A stretch of DNA of 63,226 nt, filler included, from Reclinomonas americana ATCC 50394 (lineage: Eukaryota): NCBI GenBank assembly GCA_048213135.1. It is 3 parts of one record of this genome, joined end to end, with 100 filler letters (N's around TTAATTAATTAA, not from the genome) between each part and the next. Parts side by side here need not be neighbours in the genome. Positions count along the whole stretch, not along the records: positions 20,979 to 37,181 come from PS015060.1; 2 more parts are not named here. One strand, 5' to 3'. The translations under genes and the position numbers were made by a program. How positions within the stretch are numbered: the first letter of the stretch is position 1; each line of letters opens with the position of its first letter. Shown here piece after piece: positions 21,594 to 28,656 of this stretch. The notes beneath the pieces were generated by a model. The model did not search any database. It saw only the letters and a list, made by a program, of their open reading frames with translations, and was not told the DNA's origin.

Positions 21594-24500
21594 ATGAGCA
21601 TCCCTGGTGCGTCTCTTCTCTCTTTCTCTCTCTCATATACACACCCCTGTACACACTTGCACACACTCTTGCACACACTCTTGCACGCACTTGCACACTC
21701 CTGCACACACTTGCACACACTCTTGCACACACTCTTGCACACTCTTGCACACACTTGCACACACTTGCACACACTCGCACACTCCCCCTCACTCACTCCC
21801 TCTCTCTCTCTCCCCCCACGCAGGCAATCCTTTCCCCGAGCTCGGCCCTTCTGGGTTTGGGTGAGTGCTTGTGCATCGTTCTTCCTGTGCGCGCATTGGT
21901 TCTCACTTAGTGCGCCACAGCATGCGGAGCACTGCGGAGGACGTGTCGGCGGGTGTTGATTTGGTGAGCACTCTCTTCATCTCTCCCTCTCTTCCTTTCC
22001 CACTCTCCTCTTTCTGCAATCCCCCCGTGCACTCTTTCCCTCAAGTAGTCGCATACGGCCACATGACGCGGAAAACACCACATCCCGTCCGATCTGTGAA
22101 GTTAAGCCGCGTTCAGCTGGGTCAGTACTAGGGTGGGGGACCACTTGGGAAGCCCCAGTGCTTGTATGCTTTTGCCACTTTTTTGGATCGAGAAGGGGAA
22201 GGAGAAGGGGAAGGGCAGAGCATTCACTCCTCCATCACTTACACATCGAGGCCTTCGCTTCTTCCTTCCTCTCTCCCTGTCATTCTTATTCTTCTTGGCA
22301 ACCATGCGCTGTTCTCTCGCTCTCTCTCTCTCACTCTACTACAGCCAAGAATTCACTGCACATCACAACCACTCACAGCAAGGCACCTCCATGCCTTCTC
22401 CTTTTCCCTCTGCCACTCAGCTTCCTTTTTGTCTCCGCTGCGTCTGCTTCTCCTCTCAGTGAATGCACCTCTGTGCGATTGCTTTCCTTTTTCTTTCCCC
22501 CCTGCCATCCAGCACTGGCCTTCTCCCTTTTGTCCCCCTCTCCGTGAATGCTTTGCTTGCCTTCCTTCGCCTCGTTAAGCTAGGCACTAGTCGTCATCTT
22601 TGAGTCTTCGTCGTGCTTGTCCCCTCAGTGAATGCTTTGCTTCCTTCTTCTTGCCCCCCTGCCATCCAGCACTGGTCTTTTGTCTTTTTTCTCCGTGCAC
22701 CTCTGTGCGATTACTTTCCTTTTTCTTTCCCCCCTGCCATCCAGCGCTGGTCTTCTTCCTTTTGTCACCGTGGTGCTTCTCCTCTCTATGAATACTTTGC
22801 TTTCCTTCCTTCTCCTCGGCAAGCACTGGTCTTCTTCCTTTCTGTCTCCGTGTCCTTTCTTCTCCCTCACCACCACCCACAGCACGGTAAAGTGGCCATT
22901 GTAACCGGTTGTGCCTCGGGCATTGGCGAAGGTTTCATTCCCTTCTTGCGTCTTCAACACCGACATGTCAACTCACTTTTACTCTCCTCGCAGAGACCGC
23001 CCGCGTGCTTGCCCTGCGCGGCGTCACCCTGATCATGGCAGTGCGCAGCGTCGAGCGCGGCCAGCCTGCACTGGATCGCATCGTAGCCAGCACCGGAAAC
23101 GACAAGGTCCCCCCCTCCCTTAGCTCCTCCGTTCCCCCTCTCCCTCCACTCACCCTCTTTCCTCCCTCAGGTCTCCATCATTCCGCTCAACCTCGAGTCA
23201 CTGGCCTCGGTGCGCGAATTCGTGGCCGAGTTCCGCTCCCGCTTCTCGACTCTCGACATTCTCGTCAACAACGCCGGCATCATGGCCATCCCACAAGAGA
23301 AGACGGTGGATGGCTTCGAGAAGCAATTCGGAGTGAACCACCTCGGCCACTTCTTGCTGACGGTGCTGCTGGCGCCGTTGCTGATCAGCACACCGCACAG
23401 TCGCGTGGTGGTACTGTCGTCGATCGCATACCGCCGCGGAGGACTGGATTTGAGCGACGTGAACTGGGAGACGCGTCCGTACCAGAAGTGGATGTGTGAG
23501 TGGGGGGGACAGAGCGATAGTAGAAAGGTTGTGGAATGCTCATTGTTGTGCTCAGCTTACGCCGCCGCCAAAACTGCCAATATTCTCTTTGCCGTCGAGG
23601 CTGCCCGCCTGCTCCAACCGCATGGAGTGCTGGTCAACTCGTGCCACCCGGGAGGCATCATGACCGAACTGCAGCGCAGGTGGGAAACCTGCTTGCTTCT
23701 CACGTATATACCATCACGTCCCTCACCACCATGCTGCAGTCTGCCGCGCGAGGAGATGGAGGCCATGGGTTGGATCGACAAGGTGACTGGCGAGTTGCAT
23801 TCCGCCTTTAAGACGGTGGCGGAGGGCGCGTCGACCTCGGTGTGGCTGGCCTGCAATCCGAATGTGCAGTTCTCCGGCGAATACTGCGAGGATACGAACA
23901 GTTGCGTGGAGAGGAAACAGGGGAAGGAGAAGAAGAGGAGAAGGGTGAGGGGACATGAGGAGCAGTAGCGGAAGAGACAGAGACCTACGTGAGAGTTGAC
24001 GGACAGTTAGAACGGAGGAGAGAACAGAGGCAGTGTCGACGAGAACGAGCTGTTGATGTCAAGCGCCTGAGTGGAAGCGGTGTAGTGTTGGGCAGCTGGC
24101 AGGCTGGGAGAGAGAAGAGGCAGTGTCAATGAAAGATAGATATTCTTCGTGTCGAGCTCTGCATCCTCTCCCTGGTTGTTTGTTGTTCATCTCCTCTTTA
24201 TTCTTCTCCCTCTCCGCCTCTTTCTTCTTCTTCTTCGTCTTCTTTTTCTTCTCACGGGACACAGTCAGCAGTATATTGTCATATCTCGTTTGACTGGGCA
24301 TCTACCTTGCGTAAGACTCGTGAGTCATGATTACTCTTTCATTGCGTGCCCCATGCAACAATCTTGCTTTCCGTTGTTCACCAAGCGCCTGAGTGAGAGC
24401 ACGGTGAAAGCTGTCGGTGATTTTTTGCATTCCATATTCTCTTTCCCCACTTTCTCTAATTTCATAACAACTTCTTCGGTGCGTCTCCAACAGTCTCGCT

Positions 24501-26808: not shown

Positions 26809-28656
26809 TTCTACTGCAGCCAGGAATTCACTGCACCACTCACAGCAAGGCGCCTCCATGCCTTCTTCTCTTCCCCTGCCACTCAGCTTCCTTTTTGTTT
26901 CCGCAGCGTCTGCTTCTCCTCTCAGTGAGTGCACCTCTGTGCAATTACTTTCCTTTTTCTTTCCCCCCTGTCATCCAGTGCCGGTCTTCTTCCTTTTTGG
27001 TGCTTCTCCTCTCTGTGAATGCTATGCTTTCCTTCCCTCCCCTTCTTGACAGGCACTTGTTTCCCTTTCTGTCTCCGTGTCCTTTCTTCTCTCTCACCAC
27101 CACCCACAGCACGGCAAAGTGGCCATTGTGACCGGTTGTGCCTCGGGCATTGGCGAAGGTTCTTGTTGCCGTCTCATATCTTCTCCATCGCATTGTCGCT
27201 CTCACACATTCACATCTCTCCTCGCAGAGACCGCCCGCGTGCTTGCCCTGCGCGGCGCCACCCTGATCATGGCAGTGCGCAGCGTCGAGCGCGGCCAGCC
27301 TGCACTGGATCGCATCGTAGCCAGCACCGGAAACGACAAGGTCCCCCCCTCCCATAGCTCGTCCGTTCCCCCTCTCCCTTCTCACTCACCCTCTTTCCTC
27401 CCTCAGGTCTCCATCATTCCGCTCAACCTCGAGTCGCTGACCTCGGTGCGCGAATTCGTGGCCGAGTTCCGCTCCCGCTTCTCGACTCTCGACATTCTCG
27501 TCAACAACGCCGGCATCATGGCCATCCCACAAGAGAAGACTGTGGATGACTTCGAGAAGCAATTCGGAGTGAACCACCTCGGCCACTTCTTGCTGACGGT
27601 GCTGCTGGCGCCGTTGCTGATCAGCACACCGCACAGTCGCGTGGTGGTGCTGTCGTCGATTGCACACCGCCGCGGAGGGCTCGACTTGAGCGACGTGAAC
27701 TGGGAGACGCGTCCGTACCAGAAGTGGATGTGTGAGTTGGGAGGAGAGAACGATAGCAGAACGATTGTGGTATGCTCATTGTTGTGCTCAGCTTACGCCG
27801 CCGCCAAAACTGCCAATATTCTCTTTGCCGTCGAGGCCGCCCGCCTGCTCCGCCCGCATGGAGTGCTGGTCAACTCGTGCCACCCGGGAGGCATCATGAC
27901 CGAACTGCAGCGCAGGTTGGAAAGGTGCTTGTGTCTTCGTCTATCATCACGTCCCTCACCAACATGCTGCAGTCTGCCGCGCGAGGAGATGGAGGCCATG
28001 GGTTGGATCGACAAGGTGACTGGCGAGTTGCACTCGGCGTTCAAGACGGTGGCGGAGGGCGCGTCGACCTCGGTGTGGCTGGCCTGCAATCCGAATGTGC
28101 AGTTCTCCGGCGAATACTGCGAGGACACGAACAGTTGCGTGGAGAGGAAAGAGGGGAAGTGAAGCAGAGGAGAAGGGTGAGGGGAAAGAGAGGCAAGCTG
28201 ACAGACTGAGGGATGCACATAGAGAGAGAACTAACAAGCGGCAGGTCGACAGACTGAAGAGAAAGAGAAAAGGAGATAGAAAGGCAGACGGCGAGAGCTC
28301 TCCCCACCCACCCTCAACAAAATCGACACTGCCGATCGGCAACAATCCTCCGCAGTCAGGTAGATAGTGTGCTGCCACACTTGCACCGCAGTACCGCCAT
28401 CGGTCAGGCGGAACAGTCAGCGTCAGATAGAGAGAAAAAACAGAGAGGCAGGGTTTGTGTTCGATGGCCTTCTCACTCTTCCGCCACGCAACAGTCTCGC
28501 TCCCCACCCACGAGCTGGCGCTGGACAAGGAACTCGCGAAGCAGCTGTGGACCCTCAGCGAGGAGATGGTCGGCGCCAAACTCGAGTTGCGTTGGCGCTG
28601 TGTTTATTACTTTGTCGGCGTACCGATACTCACCTTTTCAGCAATACCACAGGTGA
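26073..28656 (+). CDS. Short-chain dehydrogenase/reductase, tandem paralogue without the hydrolase
   Basis: Exons are near-identical to 21594-24584. Starts MTTTAAAAAAIPGNPF and ends ..EEMVGAKLE-stop through GA|gttgcgt..ag|GTGA. Confidence 0.87.
26460..26579 (+). rRNA. rrn5: 5S ribosomal RNA gene inside SDR intron 26369-27109
   Basis: Identical over 120 nt to the copy at 22051-22170, followed by TTTTGCCACTTTTTTT. Confidence 0.93.

Follow-up and report, generated by a model that had tools for sequence, protein, structure and literature searches.

Dispersed 5S rRNA genes have been described in Yarrowia and in Schizosaccharomyces (available parts of PMC2911113 and PMC10085805, respectively), and the 5S genes of Caenorhabditis elegans form tandem arrays (PMC12315879, in the part available). 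Introns house 264 of the 608 tRNA genes of C. elegans (Wang and Ruvinsky 2012, PMC3342880, Table 1). According to the available part of PMC5358760, a MIR occupied by Pol III in intron 1 of mammalian Polr3e can lower the expression of its host by transcriptional interference. A search of the open literature returned no paper that places a 5S gene within a spliceosomal intron. Here we describe two 5S copies, each lying in the same intron of one of two short-chain dehydrogenase (SDR) genes, in a stretch of Reclinomonas americana DNA of 63,226 bases (the whole of which is called the window below). The features are collected in Table 1. From the sequence, we propose that a normal Pol III 5S gene was probably nested on the sense strand of SDR intron 3 before the host was duplicated, and that it has been kept intact since.

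Table 1. Features of the two SDR loci and their intronic 5S rRNA genes (positions along the window)
Feature	Position	Strand	Evidence or remarks
5S rRNA gene copy A, 120 nt	22051..22170	+	Rfam RF00001, 103.2 bits, model 1-120 of 120
5S rRNA gene copy B, 120/120 identical to copy A	26460..26579	+	Rfam RF00001, 103.2 bits
37-nt flank upstream of copy A	22014..22050	+	36/37 identical to 26423-26459, the one difference being C/G at 22039
Terminator-like runs, copy A: T4 (22170-22173), GCCAC, T6 (22179-22184)	22170..22184	+	sequence
Terminator-like runs, copy B: T4 (26579-26582), GCCAC, T7 (26588-26594)	26579..26594	+	sequence
Host intron 3, SDR copy 1, 919 nt, pyrimidine-rich, tandem duplications in 3' half	21964..22882	+	GT..AG; GTGAGC..CCACAG
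Host intron 3, SDR copy 2, 741 nt	26369..27109	+	GT..AG; GTGAGC..CCACAG
16-nt motif GAAATTTCYCYGTATT, 24 nt ahead of copy 1 exon-1 ATG	21555..21570	+	twin 26035-26050, 23 nt ahead of copy 2 ATG
SDR copy 1	21594..24589	+	exons 21594-21606, 21824-21860, 21921-21963, 22883-22931, 22994-23106, 23171-23495, 23556-23679, 23740-23900, 24494-24589
SDR copy 2	26073..28590	+	exons 26073-26109, 26229-26265, 26326-26368, 27110-27158, 27228-27340, 27407-27731, 27792-27915, 27973-28133, 28495-28590
Alpha/beta-hydrolase coding region between SDR copies, not duplicated	24753..25982	+	Pfam Abhydrolase_1, E 1.3e-15; frame analysis

The first-pass annotation of this DNA had called two sense-strand 120-nt 5S genes. 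A cmscan search of the 63,226 bases on both strands, at the gathering threshold, returned exactly two matches, and both are these genes. Each copy aligns to the full RF00001 (5S_rRNA) model with a score of 103.2 bits, compared to a gathering score of 38 bits, with an E-value of 1.7e-21 and one non-canonical pair flagged. In region 45-97, where the A box, intermediate element and C box of a TFIIIA-binding internal control region would be expected, the highly conserved consensus positions (AAGUUAAGC, AGUAC and GGGUGGGGGACCAC) match in the cmscan alignment. Loop C reads CCCGUCC-GAUC, which we take to be of the eukaryotic nuclear type. A 40-nt stretch of the gene gave no matches in bacterial and archaeal genome contigs. 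Folding of the single sequence gives an unremarkable MFE (z = -1.14), a measure that is uninformative for a known RNA family, and the covariance-model score is strong. This score identifies both copies as 5S rRNA genes, and we read them as paralogous copies of a genuine nuclear gene. No further 5S copy or fragment was found elsewhere in the window, nor were any tRNA, rDNA, SL RNA or snRNA genes found in it near the two copies. The only matches to other RNA families in the window were sub-threshold and miRNA-like, on microsatellite hairpins.

The host genes were modelled by homology, from homologs that are distant (about 63% identity at most). All 16 introns of the two copies are GT-AG introns. 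The spliced product of copy 1 matches positions 3-308 of an SDR profile of 311 positions, built from 117 homologs, with 347.5 bits, and the host has a Pfam adh_short match (E 6.5e-27). Both spliced products carry VTGCASGIG, a TGxxxGxG nucleotide-binding motif, and YAAAK, a YxxxK catalytic motif, which places them among the classical SDRs. Among 1.84 billion representatives, searched exhaustively with HMMER, the host protein has no close relative (identity up to about 63%), and for exon 6 the best database match shows 66% identity over 56% of the query. The exon of the hydrolase located between the two SDR genes had no database match among longer proteins, and a 615-aa membrane protein encoded at 30546-32390 had no database match at all. 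This draft assembly has gaps: 18 N runs fall in the window, none of them between 20979 and 35188. An assembly artefact was considered and rejected on account of this uninterrupted region and of the different flanks of the two copies.

Homology between the SDR paralogs spans the promoter-proximal motif and exon 1 through the donor after exon 9, and shows the 5S gene to have been duplicated with its host, as had been proposed earlier. The motif GAAATTTCYCYGTATT has two matches in the window where 0.06 are expected, and we infer that the duplicated unit includes it as its promoter-proximal part. Each of exons 2-9 is of the same length in both copies, and together they share 919 of 948 nt (29 differences). 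Exon 1 measures 13 nt in copy 1 and 37 nt in copy 2, with the frame kept in both. The paralogs differ with a dS of 0.089 and a pS of 0.084, and their dN/dS of 0.15 shows both host genes to be under purifying selection.

Outside the 5S gene, intron 3 aligns with 486 matches and 65 mismatches (551 aligned columns) and 318 gap columns, compared to 120 identical positions out of 120 within it. The description of identical 5S copies amid a diverged intron thus holds. The probability of observing no difference in 120 nt is 2.8e-5 at a pS of 0.084, and 6e-4 at a conservative 6%. On these estimates of the neutral rate, the comparison shows the 5S gene to be conserved beyond neutral expectation, an excess in line with the selection or gene conversion which the first-pass annotation had suggested. 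The two processes are indistinguishable with two copies, and the identity could represent a gene-conversion tract.

The same excess, at either value of the local neutral rate, speaks against the two copies being silent relics or pseudogenes of a once-functional 5S gene, intact through a recent duplication or a short tract of gene conversion. We consider this explanation unlikely, although several observations are in line with it. There are just two copies in 63 kb. Exons 2 and 3 are likewise identical at 80 out of 80 nt, with about 9 differences in the 60-nt intron between them, making local homogenisation possible. Furthermore, the main source of 5S rRNA might be an array that is collapsed in, or missing from, the draft assembly, in which case the present copies could be minor or silent. 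On the other hand, both copies match the model at full length and are followed by terminators. The perfectly identical stretch extends from 22040 to 22184, i.e. from -11 to +14 around the gene, and so coincides with the 5S gene plus its terminators, which fits a functional unit and not an arbitrary tract.

Each 5S gene starts 87-91 nt into intron 3 of its SDR gene. Both introns agree with those drawn in the first-pass annotation, and in both copies they part ..STAEDVSAGVDL from HGKVAIVTG... In this gene model, the whole 5S gene lies between the donor and the acceptor of one intron, and the joined exons give an uninterrupted SDR profile match. None of the 13 ORFs of at least 110 aa found on both strands of the two host introns matched a Pfam family. 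Exon 3 (MRSTAEDVSAGVDL) precedes the 5S gene; it matches profile positions 3-12, the N-terminus of the family, and adds 7.4 bits to the profile score, whereas reading through the intron adds 1.1 bits. By tblastn, exon 3 falls on residues 2-22 in 11 or more homologs, with individual E-values that are weak (0.58-5.6). A strict N-terminal pattern, STAEDV..G.DL, occurs in 15 of 212 homolog N-termini (directly preceded by GFG in 2), and a looser inspection found the motif in 3 of 120 homologs. The regular expression was too narrow, and it is the profile result on which the homology of exon 3 is based. In the frame of exon 4, the open stretch begins only at 22604, and no Met is encoded from there to HGKVAIVTG (22883), meaning that an SDR start downstream of the 5S gene would need a non-ATG codon. 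From the 5S gene to the exon with the Rossmann motif, no in-frame ATG was found. The upstream coding exon with family homology, together with the lack of a downstream ATG before the NAD-binding motif, supports a location of the 5S genes inside the host transcription unit, in sense orientation, as far as the gene model allows.

It is very unlikely that this gene model is wrong and that the SDR mRNAs begin beyond the 5S genes, leaving these in promoter or intergenic DNA. The homology of exon 3 is indeed short (13 residues), and exon 2 is worth only 0.5 bits of the profile score. However, canonical splice sites flank exon 3 in both copies, conservation covers exons 2 and 3 but not intron 2, the frame is preserved through exon 1 despite its two lengths, and the sequence HGKVAIVTG, preceded by the Met-free frame, opens the nucleotide-binding motif.

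The immediate flanks of the 5S genes bear on how they would be transcribed. In both copies, a run of at least four T on the coding strand is found at or just past the 3' end, as in a Pol III type 1 gene, and the first T of the T4 run is the final base of the mature 5S RNA. The T-runs noted previously as terminators are present, as T4 then T6 in copy A and as T4 then T7 in copy B, and would be expected to act as such on Pol III. A conserved upstream block had also been reported. The block CTGCAATCCCCCCGTGCACTCTTTC is found at both copies (22014-22038 and 26423-26447), but its conservation alone is not significant (0.916^25, or about 0.11, for the 25 nt, by arithmetic from the pS of 0.084). The 37-nt flank upstream of the 5S genes contains no TATA-like element.

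Two modes of expression had been put forward, a Pol III unit within a Pol II pre-mRNA or a 5S RNA processed from the intron. An independent Pol III unit is favoured because the T-runs start at the last RNA base and the perfectly conserved block coincides with the gene plus its terminators, while excision from the intron received no positive support. In the latter scheme, the 5S RNA would be matured from the excised host intron of a Pol II pre-mRNA by nuclease trimming, as for intronic snoRNAs, and the supply of 5S would be coupled to the host. The sense orientation of both copies and the missing TATA-like element are compatible with it, and the tRNA-5S dicistrons of Yarrowia provide an example of a 5S cut from a longer precursor, albeit one made by Pol III (PMC2566860, in the part available). 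Nevertheless, we regard this scheme as highly improbable, as the T-runs are found exactly at the 3' end of the 5S gene, as in autonomous Pol III genes, and the internal-promoter region appears intact by the model match. Moreover, the open literature yielded no known case, and ribosomal amounts of RNA are unlikely to come from an ordinary metabolic gene.

Finally, 5S-related sequences are known in mobile elements (available parts of PMC10853983 and PMC10161547), but it is hardly credible that the present copies belong to such an element, as the head of a SINE derived from 5S or in the LTRs of a TRIM of the Cassandra kind, since the full-length match with terminators right after the RNA leaves nothing that could be a SINE body or tail, target-site duplications were looked for around the 5S genes and not found, the window holds no additional copies, and the repeat unit between the two is the whole SDR gene and not an LTR pair.

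In the nested Pol III gene that we propose, the 5S unit would be self-contained, with an internal promoter in its RNA-coding part and T-run terminators. It would have been present in intron 3 before the duplication of the SDR gene, a unit of about 3 kb from the promoter-proximal motif to the last SDR exon, and this duplication is recent (dS about 0.09). Each 5S gene would then be transcribed independently by Pol III, while Pol II would read through it and the spliceosome would remove intron 3. The identity of the 5S copies would most simply be maintained by purifying selection, with gene conversion possibly helping, and bound Pol III factors might conceivably dampen transcription of the host. 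A bolder version, which we hold to be decidedly unlikely, would make single intronic 5S genes the norm of the lineage, spreading with host duplications, and would couple the polymerases functionally, either with Pol III as a regulated roadblock to the sense Pol II transcript of the SDR genes or with part of the 5S pool trimmed from the spliced intron.

If the 5S genes are active, the locus would be a natural pairing of a strong Pol III gene with a Pol II transcript that must traverse it in the same direction. It would be useful for studying interference between Pol II and Pol III, and the growth of dispersed 5S families by hitch-hiking on host-gene duplications. Gene finders that mask rRNA, or that set a gene boundary wherever a 5S gene occurs, would split SDR models of this kind. 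Otherwise, the arrangement is what one would expect of a genome that is compact and rich in introns and has dispersed 5S genes.

The rarity implied by the first-pass annotation was overstated in kind, as a 5S gene nested in an intron is one form of dispersed 5S, and intronic Pol III genes are common (PMC3342880). A small RNA gene that is nested in a host and copied with it is tidy and mechanistically ordinary. Like intronic snoRNAs, the 5S copies are sense-strand small RNAs in a host intron. Intronic snoRNAs are processed from the host pre-mRNA and generally have no promoter and terminator of their own, whereas the present 5S genes have an apparently complete internal-promoter region and terminator runs directly after the RNA. 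In Yarrowia lipolytica the dicistronic 5S is released by processing of a longer primary transcript that Pol III makes from the tRNA promoter (available part of PMC2566860), whereas the present window has no tRNA gene. The Polr3e MIR likewise places a Pol III unit in an intron transcribed by Pol II, but, as described in the part of that report available, it is a SINE relic and antisense, and interference at the SDR locus is only a possibility. The nested tRNA and snRNA genes of Caenorhabditis are similar in that a Pol III-type small RNA gene lies wholly within an intron of a protein-coding host, although that survey does not cover 5S (neither "5S rRNA" nor "rRNA" occurs in the text of PMC3342880). 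The dispersed 5S genes of Yarrowia lipolytica and of fission yeasts resemble the present copies in being single 120-nt units outside the rDNA with their own T-run terminator; the present unit differs from them in lying in a spliceosomal intron, in sense orientation, and in having been spread by duplication of its host.

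A covariance-model scan of all 63,226 bases, on both strands and at the Rfam curated thresholds, matched a single family, 5S_rRNA, and matched it twice. Each match exceeds the curated cut-off of 38 bits and covers model positions 1–120 of 120, so the two 5S genes proposed in the first-pass annotation are borne out at those positions. The copies, A and B, are identical (120/120), and both are followed by the same order of elements: T4, counted from the last RNA base, GCCAC, and then T6 in copy A or T7 in copy B, in line with the T-runs reported earlier. The conserved upstream block that had been claimed is present at both loci as a 25-nt stretch (22014–22038 and 26423–26447), although conservation of the upstream flank (36/37 identical) is not significant alone.

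Positions of the 5S genes and of the exons of the two paralogous short-chain dehydrogenase (SDR) host genes
Feature	Position	Strand	Basis
5S copy A	22051-22170	+	Rfam 5S_rRNA, 103.2 bits
5S copy B	26460-26579	+	Rfam 5S_rRNA, 103.2 bits
SDR copy 1 exons 1-5	21594-21606, 21824-21860, 21921-21963, 22883-22931, 22994-23106		splice signals + homology
SDR copy 1 exons 6-9	23171-23495, 23556-23679, 23740-23900, 24494-24589		splice signals + homology
SDR copy 2 exons 1-5	26073-26109, 26229-26265, 26326-26368, 27110-27158, 27228-27340		splice signals + homology
SDR copy 2 exons 6-9	27407-27731, 27792-27915, 27973-28133, 28495-28590		splice signals + homology

A lax scan (E <= 0.05) added only sub-threshold miRNA-like matches on microsatellite hairpins. 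Directly 3' of each second T-run begins a purine-rich 11–12-nt repeat (GGGGAAGGAG-like; 22185–22215 and 26598–26685), grown to about six units in copy 2, which can pair with a pyrimidine-rich stretch some 40–240 nt off and thereby explains these matches. ARAGORN found no tRNA genes in the window, and together with the Rfam scans this means that no rDNA, spliced-leader, snRNA or tRNA gene lies beside the 5S genes there. A 40-nt stretch of the 5S gene had no match among bacterial and archaeal genomes.

The SDR exon models were drawn from splice signals and homology. All 16 introns of the two copies have GT-AG ends, and exons 2–9 are of equal length in both. Intron 3, which carries the 5S gene, exceeds all others in length (919 nt in copy 1, 741 nt in copy 2); intron 1 measures 217 and 119 nt, intron 8 measures 593 and 361 nt, and the others 57–69 nt. 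Against a 311-position profile built from 117 of 120 homologs (P0002–P0004 left out), the spliced products align over positions 3–308 with 347.5 (copy 1) and 346.7 bits (copy 2), and both contain the motifs VTGCASGIG and YAAAK. The large exons correspond to adh_short (Pfam), and the closest solved structure by sequence is 3rd5_A. Close relatives of three window proteins were found neither in protein searches nor among 1.84 billion representatives.

The whole finding depends on the 5S genes lying inside the host transcription unit, and on the splice-site and homology gene model the nesting put forward at first pass holds. Exon 3 (C-ATG.., MRSTAEDVSAGVDL), upstream of the 5S gene, aligns with the family N-terminal consensus at profile positions 3–12; its inclusion raises the profile score from 339.6 to 347.0 bits (+7.4), whereas in-frame read-through of intron 3 instead gives +1.1 bits. 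When the 120 homologs were compared with the exon 2–3 regions by tblastn (E <= 10; 53 HSPs), residues 2–22 of at least 11 homologs, among the 40 matches listed, were placed on STAEDVSAGVDL, just before their GK.A.VTG. These matches are individually weak (E 0.58–5.6), and several other listed HSPs are spurious and out of frame. Upstream, the exon-4 frame stays open no further than 22604 and lacks a Met, so translation from a start 3' of the 5S gene could keep the nucleotide-binding motif only by using a non-ATG codon. Between the copies, exons 2 and 3 are identical (80/80), and the 60-nt intron separating them has about nine differences. Exon 1 is 13 nt in copy 1 versus 37 nt in copy 2, with the frame kept and the ending ..I-P-G in both. 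The coding status of exon 2 is weaker, since alone it adds only +0.5 bits and no more than 3/120 homologs have GFG immediately ahead of the STAEDV-like stretch; the nesting of the 5S genes is unaffected by this.

SDR exons 2–9 differ between the copies at 29 of 948 positions (919 matches, 0 gaps), with 19.5 synonymous differences in 233 sites and 9.5 non-synonymous in 712. The resulting dS of 0.089 and dN/dS of 0.15 show that both copies are under purifying selection and that the duplication is recent. Outside the 5S gene, intron 3 aligns with 486 match, 65 mismatch and 318 gap columns, confirming the earlier observation of identical 5S copies amid a diverged intron; the other introns give 491, 225 and 259, some misalignment being likely. 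The probability of no difference in 120 nt is 2.8e-5 at the synonymous difference of 0.084, 2.9e-7 at the measured intron rate, 6e-4 at a conservative 6% and 0.024 at the whole-exon rate. Selection or gene conversion had been suggested; constraint holds, although two copies do not separate the two. The unbroken identical block runs from 11 nt 5' of the 5S gene through the end of the second T-run (22040–22184). Because it coincides with the gene and its terminators, we favour purifying selection on a working unit over a conversion tract. In copy 1, internal tandem duplications of about 110–230 nt lie in the 3' half of intron 3 (22407–22860); their units, containing CAGTGAATGC..CCCCCCTGCCATCCAGCACTGG, are fewer in copy 2 and match nothing else in the window.

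At 24494–25982, an in-frame splice may link the 3' end of SDR copy 1 to a downstream alpha/beta-hydrolase: a donor GT after 24589 and an acceptor whose last base is 24752 connect ..AKLEL with (P)QWSSVAFPQGVPW..PLVFLHG, and the hydrolase exon itself lacks an in-frame ATG. SDR copy 2 has a donor at the same position (GT after 28590), followed by 51 nt resembling an intron and by a short tail unrelated to that of copy 1; paralog homology stops exactly at the donor after exon 9. A protein search for longer sequences related to the hydrolase exon found none. The 16-nt motif GAAATTTCYCYGTATT is located 24 nt (21555–21570, copy 1) and 23 nt (26035–26050, copy 2) before the exon-1 ATGs, the latter only about 50 nt downstream of the hydrolase stop codon. 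Absent elsewhere in the window, with two matches against 0.06 expected, it may belong to the core promoter or the leader. The region 19900–21250, which precedes SDR copy 1, contains long (GA)n, (TAG)n and (GT)n microsatellite tracts and a repeat of about 185 nt containing AATGAATGAATG. A 615-aa single-exon ORF (30546–32390) begins like a signal peptide and carries a hydrophobic segment at its C-terminus; it matches no Pfam family, and the protein collection yielded no detectable relative.

In the likeliest scenario, a dispersed 5S gene of the ordinary type ended up in dehydrogenase intron 3, the host would then have duplicated from the promoter-proximal motif through the donor after exon 9, and a working 5S gene was probably kept in each copy. 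The proposed amplification with the host gene stands as co-duplication, paralog homology spanning this interval. What is generally known of type 1 Pol III genes, together with the terminators, suggests that transcription by Pol III would begin at 22051 and 26460 and end within the T-runs, and that Pol II would transcribe across the 5S gene, with intron 3 removed by splicing. According to one report, a Pol III-occupied element within an intron can reduce host expression (PMC5358760).

Alternatively, the 5S rRNA could be trimmed out of the excised host intron. This has one distant precedent, the Yarrowia tRNA-5S dicistrons, whose longer precursor is cut to release 5S (PMC2566860), and no positive support here. 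A false assembly duplication is rejected: no N run occurs between 20979 and 35188, so the two copies lie on contiguous sequence, and their flanks differ, with the hydrolase coding region after SDR copy 1 and a WD40 gene after copy 2. The 18 N runs in the window mark a gapped draft assembly, a kind that typically loses tandem 5S arrays; the joins at 20879–20978 and 37182–37281 are written N44 + TTAATTAATTAA + N44. A SINE or LTR pair is likewise rejected, since the repeat between the 5S genes is the whole dehydrogenase gene. No target-site duplications flank the 5S genes, the window holds no further copies or fragments of the 5S gene or intron 3, and Pfam families were found in 0 of 13 ORFs of at least 110 aa overlapping one or other of the 5S-bearing introns (both strands).

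Searches of the open-access literature turned up no account of a 5S gene located within a spliceosomal intron. With Pol III transcription from within the intron as the preferred reading, the 5S loci are, as judged from sequence, a further case of an already known arrangement, the Pol III gene nested in a Pol II intron.
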